Shown in pieces: positions 40,891-47,056 of a stretch of 64,000 nucleotides of DNA. This stretch comes from Minisyncoccota bacterium (GTDB lineage Bacteria; Patescibacteriota; JACMRA01). Position 1 is the first letter of the stretch, and the number at the start of each line of letters is the position of its first letter. Where the stretch lies: contig JAYVFR010000023.1 in assembly GCA_043772945.1 (NCBI GenBank), positions 4,159 through 68,158 of the forward strand. The letters are read 5' to 3'. A program made the position numbers and the translations under genes. The notes under the pieces were generated by a model, which was not told where the DNA came from, made no database searches, and worked only from the letters and a program-made list of their open reading frames with translations.

Positions 40891-43800
40891 TTACTTCAAA
40901 AACTTATCTAAAATACCTTGTTTTTTTTGTTTAATTAGCTTGTCAAATTCTTGAGAAGATAATCCATCCGTAAATAGCCTACCTTTAGAATTTTCTAAAG
41001 ATTCTATTTCTTTTACAATCTTCCCTTGGATTTCTAACGGCGGAACTGGGATTTTAACTTGGTTTTTTAGATATTCACTATTTAGACTTTTACCAAATAC
41101 TTTTGCCCCTACACTTTCAGGTAATAGAATATTTGAATTCGTGAATAATTGGTATAAATATTGATTGGTTAAGCTATCATTTTTTGGAATCAGTCCAGCT
41201 ATTGCCTCGTTTGTGTATAAATCTTGTCCTGCAATTGCTGTTTTACCAATAGAAAGTTTAAAGCTTACTAAAGTCGTATCCTTTGGAATTAATTTTACAT
41301 TTGACTTTGAAACACCTTCATCAGATATTTTTTCTTTAGTTGTTGTAATAATCTGACCTTTCATTTCTGAAATCGAAACCCATAAATTTTCACCTTCAAA
41401 ATATTGATTTATTGCACGCGATGGTGTACCACCAATTAAAACATCACAAGCTTCGCCTAATTTAATCATCGGGTATTTGCTTACAACCTCTACGCTTCCA
41501 ACGACTTTCTTTGGGGTCAAGCTAATAGCTTTGTTAAAGCTGGTTCCCGTGAAATCAAGAAGGTTTGTAAGTGAGTGATAACTGCAATGTTTAGCTAGGG
41601 TTTCTGGTAGTTCTTGAATTTGTTCATTTTTAATAAAATTCTGGCGAATATAATAACTAATTTTTGTTTCATCATTCCTGTCTTTGGGGTTAAACATTAT
41701 TGTGTTGATGTCATGAATAGTGTCTCCGCCATAATAGTGTATTCCTTCACTACCCTTTGATCCACTCCACTCATAACCTACAAACTTCTTTCGATCTTTG
41801 GTCTCAGTTGGGCATCTTACGATCAAAACTGGCTTTGGGTTTGAGAAAGCGAGAACAAAGTAATACAATTTGTCTTTTTCAATGTCTTGGAGATACGTGG
41901 TGAAATTACTGTTATATTTTCGTTTTTTATCAGTGCTTAACTTATCAAAACTCACTTTATATTCTGTAAATATTTCCGTTTCTAAAAGTTCTTTGGTTGG
42001 TTTAACGTTCAAAAGGGTTAAATAATCTTCATGGTTATAATCATTGTGCTCGCAGTAGTTTTTGATTAGAATATTATCTTCAAAATCTTCGTTTGTAATT
42101 TGATTATCAAAAAAACTTTCTACCCTATCCTTGTAATGTTCTTCGATTTCAGGTCTTTCTTTTTTTCGTTCTAGATATATAATTAATGTGTTTGTGCCAG
42201 TTTTACCAAAAGTACTTGGCGGAAGTTCTACAATTGAAATAAAATTAAAATATCTAAGGAGAATTTGGCGGGTTTGGATACTGACTTTATCAGTATTTGT
42301 TAGGATTGTATTTGGGATTACGATTCCTGCAATTCCACCTTTATTAAGGAGCTGCTTTGCTCGCTCTAAAAAGAAGTTTTGGATGTCGTCATTGGTATTT
42401 ATGTCTGAAACGGTTTTTGTTAGTTCATATTTATCACGCTCCTCGACTGGGATAGTGGTTAAAAACTCCTTAACAGCAAAGGGCGGATTGGCAATTAAAA
42501 TATCAAAACTCTCTTCCTTGATTTTAGGATTTTCAATTAATGCATCACTATCAACAATATTCACACCATCAAAACCATACATAAAAGCACTAACTTTAGC
42601 CACTTTAGCAAGTCTATCTTCTTTCTCTATACCATAGATTTCTTTATAAAAACTGGTGGGATTTTGCCCGTTATTTTTAGCAATTTGTTCAATTTGACTA
42701 GCATATTCGGTTAAAAAATGTCCCGACCCGCAGGCGTAATCAATTACCTTCAATGGTTCTATATTTTGTCTAACCATACTTTCAAGTGGAAGCGACATCA
42801 GGATAAATTTACAAATAGGAACTGGGGTAAAATACTGACCCTCCGACTGCTTGACCCCATTATCAAGGAAAAACTCGAACATATCTCCTAAAAATTGATT
42901 CTGCTCTTTAGTTTTGAGTCTCAATGACTGCCACATTTGAGTAACCTCTAAAATTATTTTTACGTTTTTATTAAAACCTTCTTTGTTTTTAACCCCAATA
43001 AATCCAAAATTATTATCGTTATAAAATTTTAACTTTTTAAATAGCTCTTCGATTGTGTTTCTAGTTGCGTTTTTCTTATTTTTATATGCCCAGAATGCTC
43101 CCTCGATCTCTCCATTACTAACATAAGTTATTTCTTGCTCTAAATATTTCTCCATTCCCACCTTGTAGAGTTCCTGAAGCCTATCTATAAAATCGTAATA
43201 ATTATCATAGGCTATTCCTTTCCAATAAAATTTTAAATCTGTTGGGTTCTGAGTTTCATCAACAATTTTACACAAAAATAGATTTACAAGTATTTCAAAA
43301 GCATTTTCTTTCCTAGATACATTATATTTTCGCAAAATTGTAGCAAATTGATTGTATTTGCCTTTTTTATCAGCGTTTGTTATAATTCTTGTGTCATCTG
43401 ACAGAGTATATTTATCTTTACCAATTTGGTAAGGTTGCACATTATCTTCAAAAATACCACTCTCTGTAAATTCTAAATTATAAGTTTGTTGCCACACTCT
43501 AAATCTTTCCTTTACATTTTTAGCTCTTAAATAGCTTTCAAGGTTAGTATTTTCATCTAATATTTTTTGATTATCTTTATGAGATATAACTTTTTGATCT
43601 ACTATTATTTGATTAAGCTCTGAATTTAGACTACAGGCGTATAAACAAACATATTTTACATCTTTTTCTTGCTCAATATAGCTAAATAGTTGATCGCCAT
43701 CGTTTAGTGTTTTCTTCCAAGCGTTCTCAAATTCTTTGCCAGCTGTTTTGCATTCAATTATCAAGAGTGGTTTATTATTTTGATCTCTCACAAACACATC

Positions 43801-44142
43801 TGCCCTACCACCGCTTGCACCATGACCTAATTTCCACTTAGGTTCCAACTCAATATGCTCGGGTTTGTACCCTTTTTCAAATAGACGATTAACGCATTCA
43901 AATACTACAAAGTTTTCATCACTACTAAAATTAGTTGTAAATTCACCGTTCACAATAAAACGCTGATCGGTTGGGTAAATTAACTTTTGATTATCAAAAT
44001 CAACCTTTAAATAGGCTCCAGTTGTAAAATTTTTAATCCATATTTTTGCATCTTCATCAGAATCGAAATTCAGGGTTTTTAGTAAATCGGGTAACGTTTT
44101 TTTGTTGAGCATACATAAAATTAATCCAAAATCCTCCGCCAT
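40891..44142 (-). CDS. single-chain restriction-modification-specificity enzyme (type IIG/IIB-like)
   Basis: 1083 aa in three parts. (1) N-terminal PD-(D/E)xK nuclease: D115 in ADVFV, then E130-C-K132 in LLIIECK. (2) Gamma-class N6-adenine methyltransferase motifs GQYFTP, VIDYACGSGHFL and, at aa 552-555, NPPF. (3) One C-terminal HsdS-type target-recognition domain (LGEACDVLIGGTPSR...NLWVSISEM...YTNEAIAGL). Confidence 0.85.
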   Translation of the reverse strand: MAEDFGLILCMLNKKTLPDLLKTLNFDSDEDAKIWIKNFTTGAYLKVDFDNQKLIYPTDQRFIVNGEFTTNFSSDENFVVFECVNRLFEKGYKPEHIELEPKWKLGHGASGGRADVFVRDQNNKPLLIIECKTAGKEFENAWKKTLNDGDQLFSYIEQEKDVKYVCLYACSLNSELNQIIVDQKVISHKDNQKILDENTNLESYLRAKNVKERFRVWQQTYNLEFTESGIFEDNVQPYQIGKDKYTLSDDTRIITNADKKGKYNQFATILRKYNVSRKENAFEILVNLFLCKIVDETQNPTDLKFYWKGIAYDNYYDFIDRLQELYKVGMEKYLEQEITYVSNGEIEGAFWAYKNKKNATRNTIEELFKKLKFYNDNNFGFIGVKNKEGFNKNVKIILEVTQMWQSLRLKTKEQNQFLGDMFEFFLDNGVKQSEGQYFTPVPICKFILMSLPLESMVRQNIEPLKVIDYACGSGHFLTEYASQIEQIAKNNGQNPTSFYKEIYGIEKEDRLAKVAKVSAFMYGFDGVNIVDSDALIENPKIKEESFDILIANPPFAVKEFLTTIPVEERDKYELTKTVSDINTNDDIQNFFLERAKQLLNKGGIAGIVIPNTILTNTDKVSIQTRQILLRYFNFISIVELPPSTFGKTGTNTLIIYLERKKERPEIEEHYKDRVESFFDNQITNEDFEDNILIKNYCEHNDYNHEDYLTLLNVKPTKELLETEIFTEYKVSFDKLSTDKKRKYNSNFTTYLQDIEKDKLYYFVLAFSNPKPVLIVRCPTETKDRKKFVGYEWSGSKGSEGIHYYGGDTIHDINTIMFNPKDRNDETKISYYIRQNFIKNEQIQELPETLAKHCSYHSLTNLLDFTGTSFNKAISLTPKKVVGSVEVVSKYPMIKLGEACDVLIGGTPSRAINQYFEGENLWVSISEMKGQIITTTKEKISDEGVSKSNVKLIPKDTTLVSFKLSIGKTAIAGQDLYTNEAIAGLIPKNDSLTNQYLYQLFTNSNILLPESVGAKVFGKSLNSEYLKNQVKIPVPPLEIQGKIVKEIESLENSKGRLFTDGLSSQEFDKLIKQKKQGILDKFLK
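43999..44070 (-). repeat. direct repeat partner of 39475-39546, inside the RM gene 5' region
   Basis: See the relic feature at 39475-39546. The first 53 nt differ at only one position. Confidence 0.9.
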
Positions 44143-44955: not shown

Positions 44956-46425
44956 ATGACTTCAAAATCTTTTTTGCTTATTCTAAGCAGGCAAATTACT
45001 AGTAAATGGGGGCGTACACTTCTTGCTAGTTGTGGGATTATGATTGGAATTTGGGCAATTACTCTGACTTCTAGCATTTCAATAGGGCTTTCTGACACTA
45101 TAATTGAGGCTATAAATTCACAATCAATTGCCAAGCAAATTACGCTTAATAAAACCAGTGCAGGTGAAGGTAGTTTCTTTGATTTGAAGGCTCCACCAGT
45201 TTTTGTTCCTTTTAGTCGGGAAGAAATTAGCTCTATTAAAACTAAATATCCTGAAATTGTAGATATTGGTCCTACTTCGCGAATGAATTTTTTTGTGCAA
45301 ACTAATTCAAATACTTTAGAACAAATTAAGTGCGTAGAGTTTGAAAATTCTATAAACTTGTCTATTACTCCTCAAAGCCCTAAACCAAAACTAGAAGATA
45401 CTAATAAATTAGCTAGTAACTGCAAAAATATTAGTCATAGCTTTACTGGTTTTGAAGAATTTTATGACGCCAAAAAAAAGAATTGGTACGGTCAAAAAAG
45501 CAAACCTGCAATTGGGGAAATTGCTCTCTGTTTTAAATGCGGAAACACAAATCTGAATCAAATTTTGAAAGTAGAAAAGCCTGAAGATCTTCTAAACAAA
45601 CAAATTCAAATTGAATTGCAACGGGCTCCAGAATTGTATGAAATAGGCAAAAATGTGGACGTAACTAATATTGATAGACCGGCTACTAAAATCAATAAAT
45701 CTGAAACAATAACTTTAAAAGTAGTGTCAGTAATTGACGATCGTGAGGCTAGTATTTTTGATGGATCGGCTATTTATTTTGATTACAATTATTTCCAAAA
45801 AGCCTTTGAGCTAGCCAGACCAAATGATAATTTTTTGCAATACGGATCAATTCAATACAATGTATTTTTGGATAAATACCAAAGTCTGGATAAAACTATA
45901 AATAGTTTGCGAGGTGATAAACTTTTAGCCTTTTCTGTAGCCCAAGAAACCATCAAAGGGGTATCGGTTGCCTTTCAAGTTTTAACAGTTGGGCTTTCGG
46001 CTCTTGGATTTATTGCATTAATTGTATCGGTATTTGGGATTATAAATGTGATGACAATCTCGGTTTTGGAGCGTCAAAAAGAAATTGGAATTTTAAAATC
46101 GCTCGGTGCTAGGAATTTAGACATTTTTGTTATGTTTTTATTAGAAAGTTCAATTCTTGGTTTGATTGGCTGGATTCTGGGAACTTTGCTGGCTTTCCTT
46201 TCAAATCTGGCAATCTCAAAAGTCTTTAAGCTAGTTCTAGAGAACAACAAAGATTTAAACTCGAGCTTAACGGGCTTGAATATTACTCAATTTAATCCTT
46301 CAATTCCTATTTGGCTTGGGTTTGGGACGTTGATTCTAGCCCTTTTCTTTACTATTATTTCAGGAATTTACCCGTCTTTTAAAGCTAGTCGCCAGAATCC
46401 AGTAGACGTCCTACGCTCGGAGTAG
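44956..46425 (+). CDS. FtsX/MacB-type ABC permease with large extracytoplasmic domain
   Basis: 489 aa. One TM helix, a ~300-aa loop, then three TM helices. The FtsX-domain motif is ERQKEIGILKSLGA. Confidence 0.85.
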   Translation: MTSKSFLLILSRQITSKWGRTLLASCGIMIGIWAITLTSSISIGLSDTIIEAINSQSIAKQITLNKTSAGEGSFFDLKAPPVFVPFSREEISSIKTKYPEIVDIGPTSRMNFFVQTNSNTLEQIKCVEFENSINLSITPQSPKPKLEDTNKLASNCKNISHSFTGFEEFYDAKKKNWYGQKSKPAIGEIALCFKCGNTNLNQILKVEKPEDLLNKQIQIELQRAPELYEIGKNVDVTNIDRPATKINKSETITLKVVSVIDDREASIFDGSAIYFDYNYFQKAFELARPNDNFLQYGSIQYNVFLDKYQSLDKTINSLRGDKLLAFSVAQETIKGVSVAFQVLTVGLSALGFIALIVSVFGIINVMTISVLERQKEIGILKSLGARNLDIFVMFLLESSILGLIGWILGTLLAFLSNLAISKVFKLVLENNKDLNSSLTGLNITQFNPSIPIWLGFGTLILALFFTIISGIYPSFKASRQNPVDVLRSE

Positions 46426-46484
46426 AATATTTTTAGCGCTATCCTTTACTTGGTGAAATAATTGCTATGCTTCGTTTGGTGTAG

Positions 46485-46512
46485 TGTCATGCCTCGTTTG
46501 ACGGGGCATCTA
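46485..46512 (+). repeat. left inverted repeat / hairpin
   Basis: tgtcatgcctcgtttgacggggcatcta. It is itself an 8-bp hairpin, ATGCCTCG/CGGGGCAT. Confidence 0.8.
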
Positions 46513-46517
46513 AAGAA

Positions 46518-46817
46518 TTACAAACATAACCTAGTAGCAAAAAGGTCTAATAACGTGGGGTTCGTATTTTTAACTAAATCAATCTTCCAGTCATATTTCT
46601 AATGTTTAATTTGTTTTTCACGAATAATAATTGATTCTATATTTTGACTTTGCTCCCAGTAGACTAATTTTTTGAGATTATATTTAGCAGTATAAGAATC
46701 TGGGTTGGTTTTATTTTTATGTTCAAAAATTCTTCGTTCTAAATCATTTGTCATTCCAACATAAAGAGGTTTATTGCTATTGTTAGTGATTATATAGGTG
46801 TAATAATTTTTAGTCAT
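46518..46817 (-). pseudogene. GIY-YIG nuclease family gene (UPF0213/YhbQ-like) interrupted by an in-frame TAG
   Basis: The 72-aa ORF at 46599-46817 carries YTYIITNNSNKPLYVGMTNDLERRIFEH. The same frame continues past the TAG as KYDWKIDLVKNTNPTLLDLF up to a TAA at 46518. The total of 99 codons matches the usual length of this family. Confidence 0.6.
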
Positions 46818-46834
46818 ATAAAATATTTGTTAAG

Positions 46835-46862
46835 TAGATGCCCCTTCAAGCGAGGCATGACA
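46835..46862 (+). repeat. right inverted repeat / hairpin
   Basis: tagatgccccttcaagcgaggcatgaca, the reverse complement of the left repeat with 2 mismatches. Confidence 0.8.
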
Positions 46863-47056
46863 GTAGGATAAGCCATCCGCCAGAATCTAGTAGACGTCCT
46901 ACGTTCGGAGTAAAGCTGGGTTTTATCTTTTTCAGTAGAAAATAGTAGAGTTACCGCCACTTATAGATTTTACTAAATTTTCAAACTGGTCATGAAATCA
47001 CAACAAAATTTTTGTTGATATAATTCATTATCAATTTCTAATGGATCGATTCTACT

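Follow-up and report, generated by a model that had tools for sequence, protein, structure and literature searches.

A decaying Ssn-family GIY-YIG cassette and a one-off duplication of a permease gene terminus in a Patescibacteria genome

Introduction

SsnA of Neisseria meningitidis is a single-domain GIY-YIG enzyme of 94 aa (Chenal et al. 2025, Nat Commun 16:2388, PMC11893778). It binds its hairpin repeat, called NTS, solely in the form of single-stranded DNA (ssDNA) and places its cut a few nt upstream of this repeat; the finding that cutting is restricted to ssDNA covers four homologues (PMC11893778). The catalytic tyrosines of the GIY and YIG motifs and the cofactor-binding glutamate are Y6, Y17 and E64, and a degenerate pattern, HGTCWYN(0-2)YYVSBRHN(0-5)WNVSBRGN(0-2)RNCYNB, has been published for the Ssn-related motif (SRM), i.e. 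the hairpin repeat (PMC11893778). The arrangement NTS-ssnA-NTS was called identical in layout to an insertion sequence by the authors; mobility was not demonstrated there, and the suggestion that the unit may be, or may once have been, a mobile element was made without data (PMC11893778). Here we describe a locus with this layout in a Minisyncoccota bacterium, located on contig JAYVFR010000023.1 of assembly GCA_043772945.1 (positions 4,159 to 68,158). The whole stretch of 64,000 nt that was analysed is called the window from here, and coordinates refer to it. The locus combines a minus-strand ssn gene carrying an in-frame TAG, a pair of inverted hairpins around it and, outside the hairpins, two direct copies of the end of an FtsX-type ABC transporter permease gene.

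Several other systems resemble parts of this locus. Among the mobile open reading frames (mORFs) of fungal mitochondria, reported for atp6 of Allomyces and for atp6, atp9, cox2 and nad3 of Glomus (PMC3630166), the order is the same as here: a gene core, a functional terminus, an endonuclease gene and a non-functional duplicate of the terminus, and one of these mORFs uses a GIY-YIG enzyme. They differ in that the fungal terminus is foreign and the enzyme is a multi-domain homing endonuclease acting on double-stranded DNA, whereas the window contains the species' own termini and a member of an ssDNA-specific single-domain family. The systems of repetitive extragenic palindromes with their associated transposases (REP/REPIN-RAYT, or REPtron) and the insertion sequences IS200/IS605 likewise place a nuclease gene between inverted copies of a hairpin that is recognised by its product and act on ssDNA. 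Their enzymes are, however, HUH/Y1 transposases with covalent intermediates, unlike the hydrolytic GIY-YIG nuclease considered here, and the genome to which the window belongs has no dispersed gene-less repeats. Homology-facilitated illegitimate recombination and Campbell-type integration also place accessory DNA at a gene end, preserve the terminus, leave a short flanking direct repeat and have one junction with at most 1–3 nt of microhomology; in contrast to these, there is no integrase or attachment site in our case, and the event itself has not been observed.

Results

Assignment of the cassette to the Ssn/SRM system

The host genome is of the Patescibacteria type (0.95 Mb in 26 contigs, 32% GC, ~81% complete). 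The minus-strand open reading frame (ORF) at 46817..46599 encodes 72 aa and matches the Pfam GIY-YIG profile with an E value of 3e-13. The intact allele, found in sister strains, matches the same profile with an E value of 7e-14 over positions 1–78 of 78 at its residues 4–80 and contains no other domain. Intact alleles encode 110 and 112 aa, in line with the ~90–110 aa expected of a single-domain Ssn protein, and their ends lie inside the SRM. The protein consists of an 80-residue catalytic domain and a short tail, part of which is encoded by the hairpin, and it lacks a DNA-binding domain. The catalytic motifs YTYII (Y6/Y8), LYVG (Y19), RR (28–29), EH (32–33) and REKQIK (E67) are all located upstream of the in-frame TAG, and a conserved NP (N86) is located downstream of it.

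The first-pass annotation, made from the sequence alone, had described inverted hairpin repeats around this gene, and they were recovered here as an inverted repeat of 31 nt with 90% complementarity (46482–46512 and 46835–46865). Both arms consist of TGTCAT, an 8-bp stem, a loop, the complementary stem and ATCTA, placed in inverted orientation on either side of the gene. Folded as ssDNA, the left arm forms a hairpin at −7.0 kcal/mol (z −3.4) and the right arm one at −3.6 kcal/mol (z −1.6). The right hairpin of the window reads GAAGGGG in place of the GACGGGG of all other strains, a C-to-A change by which the stem is weakened. The proposed search for additional hairpins next to GIY-YIG genes, carried out over the whole genome at the DNA level and with fuzzy hairpin patterns, returned only the two flanking copies, and the nuclease gene is single-copy according to DNA and protein searches.

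Homologues of the nuclease were detected in 120 of 401 genomes sampled from the phylum, many of them with multiple copies. Nearly all homologues that were fetched are bracketed by inverted hairpins composed of YGTCAT, a stem of ~8 bp starting with AT, a loop, the complementary stem and ATC; the stems vary between genomes and keep their complementarity, i.e. they co-vary. One of these homologues, which is 44% identical to the nuclease (E 9e-21), is flanked by the literal published NTS, CGTCATTCCCGCGCAAGCGGGAATCCAG. The assignment to Ssn was made via this NTS-flanked relative and the shared architecture. Judged by a single-domain GIY-YIG protein of ~100 aa between inverted hairpins with 5′ YGTCAT, an 8-bp stem starting with AT and 3′ ATC, the cassette matches the published Ssn/SRM system with its NTS-ssnA-NTS layout. 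The window differs from the published description by the degeneration of the gene, by the duplicated 44-bp host gene terminus around the cassette, which is absent from that description, and by a cassette turnover in both orientations that is revealed by the strain comparison.

Searches of PDB with the nuclease sequence and of Rfam with the hairpins and the permease tail gave no match. A classification as insertion sequence or miniature inverted-repeat transposable element was considered and rejected: inverted arms of 28–56 nt are present, but the repeat flanking the unit measures 44 bp, a transposase is lacking and only one copy exists.

Some observations concern Ssn loci and hairpins elsewhere. 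At other Patescibacteria Ssn loci several long host ORFs end in a hairpin repeat (L086, L092, L111, L123, L140, L142); the repeats therefore often provide neighbouring genes with their last codons and stop. In another genome, an ssn homologue is flanked by a 50-nt direct repeat that is not hairpin-like (L114:1338-1387 / 1789-1838). Solo copies that match the 27-nt hairpin subtype TGTCATGCCTCGCTTGACGGGGCATCT exactly are present in unrelated phyla (L144-L150), namely in metagenome-assembled genomes of Fibrobacter, Cloacimonadaceae and Alphaproteobacteria and in two metagenome contigs, with no ssn within the fetched stretch.

State of the nuclease gene

That the reading frame meets a TAG after 72 codons and continues to 99 codons, as stated in the first-pass annotation, was reproduced; the position given for this codon (46596–46598) was not, since it lies at 46599–46601. 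Every open-frame allele has TGG (Trp) at this place, both in L065/L066 (110 aa) and in L067-L069 (112 aa from the first ATG), and the replaced Trp falls into the conserved motif REKQIKHW. Compared with L065, the window allele is also 2 nt short near 46540–46544, by which its C-terminal tail, a poorly conserved part, is put out of frame. The TAG allele is no sequencing error, since it was met again in three or more other assemblies (L070/L075, L074, L076). In this organism TAG is a normal stop, as the permease gene uses it at exactly the position at which all its orthologues end. Because sister alleles have TGG, TAG is a normal stop and a 2-nt deletion is present, we read the ssn gene of the window as a recent pseudogene, arisen via TGG to TAG at Trp73 and the deletion, and not as a read-through gene; read-through is unneeded to account for it. 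The earlier suspicion of a fresh inactivation was borne out in this way, and the need for read-through suggested as its alternative was dropped.

A truncated product would retain the catalytic Tyr, Arg, His and Glu and would lose the last helix together with the conserved Asn, so it is likely inactive. Between the two cassette haplotypes represented by the intact alleles of the sister strains, dN/dS (the ratio of nonsynonymous to synonymous divergence) is 0.13, which places these alleles under purifying selection and marks both haplotypes as functional. Decay of ssn is common, since in-frame stops were found in ~24 of the 150 best ssn matches from the 401 genomes, i.e. in about one in six. Some TGA codons among these in-frame stops may be sense codons in lineages using genetic code 25.

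The duplicated permease terminus

The C-terminus of the permease, KASRQNPVDVLRSE followed by the stop, has the same length and motif in orthologues from ~17 other genera. A repetition of the last 35 nt of the gene at 33 of 35 positions had been noticed before. It forms the core of a longer direct repeat of 43 nt with 88% identity (46382–46424 and 46870–46912); with the stops included, 38 of 44 positions are identical between the upstream copy (tail1, 46382–46425, TAG) and the downstream copy (tail2, 46870–46913, TAA). The cassette occupies the gap of 0.44 kb between these direct copies, each of which spans the final 14 codons and the stop. The earlier description of the locus as a hairpin-bounded GIY-YIG gene forming an accessory cassette between two permease termini is confirmed with regard to the layout: tail1 makes the ORF whole, and tail2 is a relic. 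This is not an assembly artefact, since three or more independent assemblies (L070/L075, L074, L076) show the same arrangement.

Across the strains, tail1 and tail2 are identical at 38–40 of 44 positions (86–93%), compared with 21–32 of 44 (48–73%) for the tails of other genera against either copy. Therefore, both copies are the species' own sequence and neither is a foreign terminus, which does not agree with the initial proposal that the element had supplied a terminus from outside. The two copies are homologous exactly as far as their stop codons; what follows each stop is unrelated. The start of the relic lies 7 nt beyond the right SRM, on the side that is cut by homologous enzymes, and coincides with a breakpoint in the strain variant L069.

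Loci with both terminus copies and no nuclease gene would speak against an insertion; at ~20 orthologous permease loci from other genera we found neither a second tail nor a cassette. An allele with a single tail would read permease ...GGAGTAA directly joined to AGCTGGGTTTTATC. The nearest metagenomic relatives of the permease (54–55% aa identity) are not syntenic, a scan of JGI metagenomes for the tail found nothing, and Logan contigs break within the repeat and yielded no empty site. A weak GIY-like match downstream of the permease in genus g8 (L014) was discarded as part of a longer unrelated ORF without hairpins. Likewise discarded was the idea that the permease tail is a pseudo-SRM hairpin targeted by the nuclease, as its fold is no better than that of shuffled sequences (z about +0.5). 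An inverted repeat reaching beyond the 56-nt arms into the tail is not significant either (254 of 2000 shuffles score as well).

Strain variants and recombination at the hairpins

Variants of the locus in other strains were taken from contigs of other assemblies; their flanks are 95–99% identical and they fall into five structures, four of which contain the 43/44-nt duplication. Structure 1 is the type of the window. On its left side a degenerate half-hairpin, called ext, joins the left SRM to form a 56-nt arm; the inverted partner of ext is kept in L065, L067 and L068 and deleted in the window. Structure 2 (L070) is identical to the window apart from a further deletion of 22 nt from the half-hairpin to the left hairpin. 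In structure 3 (L065/L066) the cassette has the orientation of the window and an intact gene, and its right side consists of hairpin, ext, a 55-nt spacer, a second hairpin and the relic. In view of this double right hairpin, the right end of the window is explained by a deletion from one direct hairpin copy to the other; the two direct SRM copies that are merged in the right SRM of the window remain separate in L065, L067 and L068. Structure 4 (L067/L068) has the gene on the plus strand behind three half-hairpins and an extra hairpin, with the outer arms and the relic unchanged. Structure 5 (L069) is like L067/L068 except for a hairpin-to-hairpin deletion of the window type and the lack of the relic: the hairpin is followed by GTGGGTT (7–8 nt) and then by ~770 nt of unrelated DNA up to the stop codon of the DedA gene. 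Among the strains, direct SRM copies thus bound a deletion in two cases, and a half-hairpin bounds one of 22 nt in a single case.

The synonymous divergence (dS) between minus- and plus-oriented ssn genes is 0.55, compared with 0.04–0.14 for the genes that flank them in the same strains (permease, dedA and pilM). The strains are therefore far younger than the two cassette haplotypes that they carry. This argues for a replacement of cassettes between conserved hairpin arms, in either orientation, rather than for a recent flip in place, and the comparison supports a role of the hairpins as recombination boundaries. Next to the plus-oriented cassette, a supposed remnant of an ssn gene in minus orientation was not significant.

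Further details of the variable parts were noted. The 12-nt half-hairpin ATGCTTCGTTTG is located 22 nt upstream of the same motif within the left hairpin (window 46467–46500), and the 22 nt between them are those deleted in one strain (L070:6508-6535). The ~770 nt in L069 (L069:2824-3586) stand in for the relic and the 144-nt intergenic stretch (window 46870–47056); they contain two minus-strand ORFs of 112 and 125 aa without Pfam match and without counterpart in the genome of the window, and homology to the window restarts exactly at the DedA stop codon. Upstream of the gene for the ABC ATPase, the window and L070 contain a large restriction-modification gene (window 40891–44142), which in the plus-orientation strains is replaced by small unrelated ORFs (L067:1-1584, L068:1-1584). 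The transporter operon is thus bordered by variable DNA on either side. The coordinates of all parts of the locus are compiled in Table 1.

Table 1. Parts of the permease–cassette locus, in window coordinates
Feature	Coordinates	Strand	Remarks
FtsX-type ABC permease gene, 489 aa, intact	44956..46425	+	TAG stop 46423-46425; Pfam FtsX E 2e-21
tail1, upstream direct-repeat copy: functional last 14 codons + TAG	46382..46425	+	
Spacer, 31 nt, from permease stop to cassette arm	46426..46456	unstranded	Conserved in all strain variants
ext, AATAATTGCTATGCTTCGTTTGGTGTAG, degenerate half-hairpin, 28 nt	46457..46484	+	
Left SRM hairpin, TGTCATGCCTCGTTTGACGGGGCATCTA	46485..46512	+	5′-TGTCAT on + strand; cut side outward
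ssn pseudogene, Ssn-family single-domain GIY-YIG	46521..46817	-	99 codons if TAG is read through
2-nt deletion site in A-run	46540..46544	-	Relative to intact L065 allele
In-frame TAG, codon 73 of ssn	46599..46601	-	TGG (Trp) in intact alleles L065, L067, L068, L069
Right SRM hairpin, TGTCATGCCTCGCTTGAAGGGGCATCTA on minus strand	46835..46862	-	Has stem-weakening C to A
Junction, 7 nt, GTAGGAT, from 5′ side of right SRM to relic	46863..46869	unstranded	GTRGGTT in other strains
tail2, relic copy of permease terminus, AIRQNLVDVLRSE + TAA, non-coding	46870..46913	+	In-frame TAA precedes

Discussion

Proposed history of the locus

We consider it probable, though well short of assured, that an SRM-ssn-SRM cassette was placed or rebuilt at the end of the permease gene by break repair, that this duplicated 44 bp and that the nuclease was lost later. 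By analogy with the homologues for which this was shown, the Ssn enzyme would nick ssDNA a few nt 5′ of each SRM. As both cut sides face outward, recombinogenic ends would arise at the edges of the cassette. In a single break-repair event at the permease end, the cassette could then have been placed or rebuilt and 44 bp of resident or near-identical sequence duplicated. This might have been a widely staggered insertion, giving a long target duplication, or, equally possible, DNA from a close relative with the arrangement of L069 might have been joined illegitimately, anchored by homology. Selection would spare only arrangements with a complete permease ORF, leaving one copy coding and the other to decay. 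Hairpin-to-hairpin deletions and cassette replacement would have followed, and in the lineage of the window the nuclease would have been lost and one hairpin stem would have started to decay.

Several findings weigh against this history. Only one of the two junctions of the duplication lies beside a predicted cut site, its left edge being 59 nt away from the nearest SRM, and even the relic junction is 7 nt from TGTCAT compared with ~3 nt for the cut of the N. meningitidis enzyme. Among 93 Ssn loci scanned, a duplication of a host gene end was found at this locus alone, and the duplication footprint may be unrelated to Ssn chemistry. An empty site was not found, as all four permease variants of at least 90% identity in a collection of 15 billion proteins carry the cassette, so the insertion is inferred, not observed. 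With regard to the Ssn/SRM system itself, neither hairpin matches the published SRM pattern, which has 0 matches in the entire genome and does match the canonical NTS and the hairpin of one relative. In addition, dispersed SRM copies, which are typical of Ssn hosts and number in the hundreds there, are lacking in this genome beyond the two flanking ones.

Alternative explanations

Alternatively, a homing-type mobile element could have inserted within the gene and brought along a replacement for the permease terminus that came from a donor genome, so that the native one stayed behind. The relic abutting the cassette edge and the completion of the ORF by the upstream copy would suit such an event, and the same layout is found in the mitochondrial mORFs, including the GIY-YIG case in atp9 (PMC3630166). 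Yet the two tails are far closer to each other than to those of other genera, at 86–93% versus 48–73% identity, whereas the inserted termini of the fungal mORFs are just 64–81% identical to the native ones (PMC3630166). The nuclease is a single domain of 100 aa from a family reported to act on ssDNA only and has no DNA-binding domain. Furthermore, no host-gene terminus was found at ~90 related cassettes and no cassette beside orthologous permeases in other genera, from which it appears that the cassette does not generally travel with a host terminus. A local duplication or a recombination within the population seems to fit these data better than a terminus carried in, which we regard as unlikely.

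Similarly improbable is a recent tandem duplication of the permease gene, followed by the loss of most of the second copy, with 44 bp left beside the cassette. Tandem permease paralogues do exist in related genera (G011, G019, G004), and deletions ending in an SRM are demonstrably frequent at this locus. However, the paralogues of the relatives are only ~40% identical, compared with 86–93% here; a simple tandem duplication would not be expected to leave unrelated sequences downstream of tail1 and tail2 from the first base past the stop; and at least two events plus the cassette are needed, which is less economical.

A role of the hairpins as ordinary terminators of transcription or as regulatory stem-loops for the flanking genes, in an incidentally inverted layout, is very improbable: they do lie at gene ends and fold as hairpins, but neither is followed by a T-run or called by a terminator scan, they occur nowhere else in the genome, and the same tagged hairpin architecture surrounds homologous nuclease genes across the phylum, all of which also answers the concern of the first-pass annotation that they might be generic terminators. 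Finally, a functional nuclease with its TAG decoded through read-through or a variant genetic code can practically be set aside, for although family-like sequence continues in frame past the TAG, this codon is TGG in sister strains and a true terminator in the permease gene, the deletion further downstream breaks the frame as well, and decay is common in the family.

Conclusions

The locus in the window represents the published Ssn/SRM system in a state of decay, and the 44-bp duplicate of a host gene terminus that it contains is a one-off. For its annotation this means that the TAG is a real stop, that ssn is a pseudogene and that the permease is intact, and also that the published SRM search pattern misses this class of hairpins. 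Beyond that, the locus provides a small strain-resolved data set on the question of Ssn-cassette mobility. The points relevant to this question are the duplication of resident sequence around the cassette, the outer edge 7 nt from the hairpin that serves as a breakpoint in two arrangements, the two old haplotypes on the same hairpin arms in opposite orientations, and the frequent hairpin-to-hairpin deletions. These strain data support the hairpins as recombination boundaries; transposition is not shown by them.

We regard it as doubtful that the 44-bp duplication is a true insertion footprint and that Ssn cassettes represent a mobile element with a new type of mechanism. If they did, a hydrolytic ssDNA nickase would make outward-facing ends beside its own hairpins, and the cassette would be joined at a new site via widely staggered nicks or via a homology-anchored illegitimate join of Ssn-cut transforming DNA. 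Later swaps of cassettes, in either orientation, would then be possible between the resident hairpin arms.

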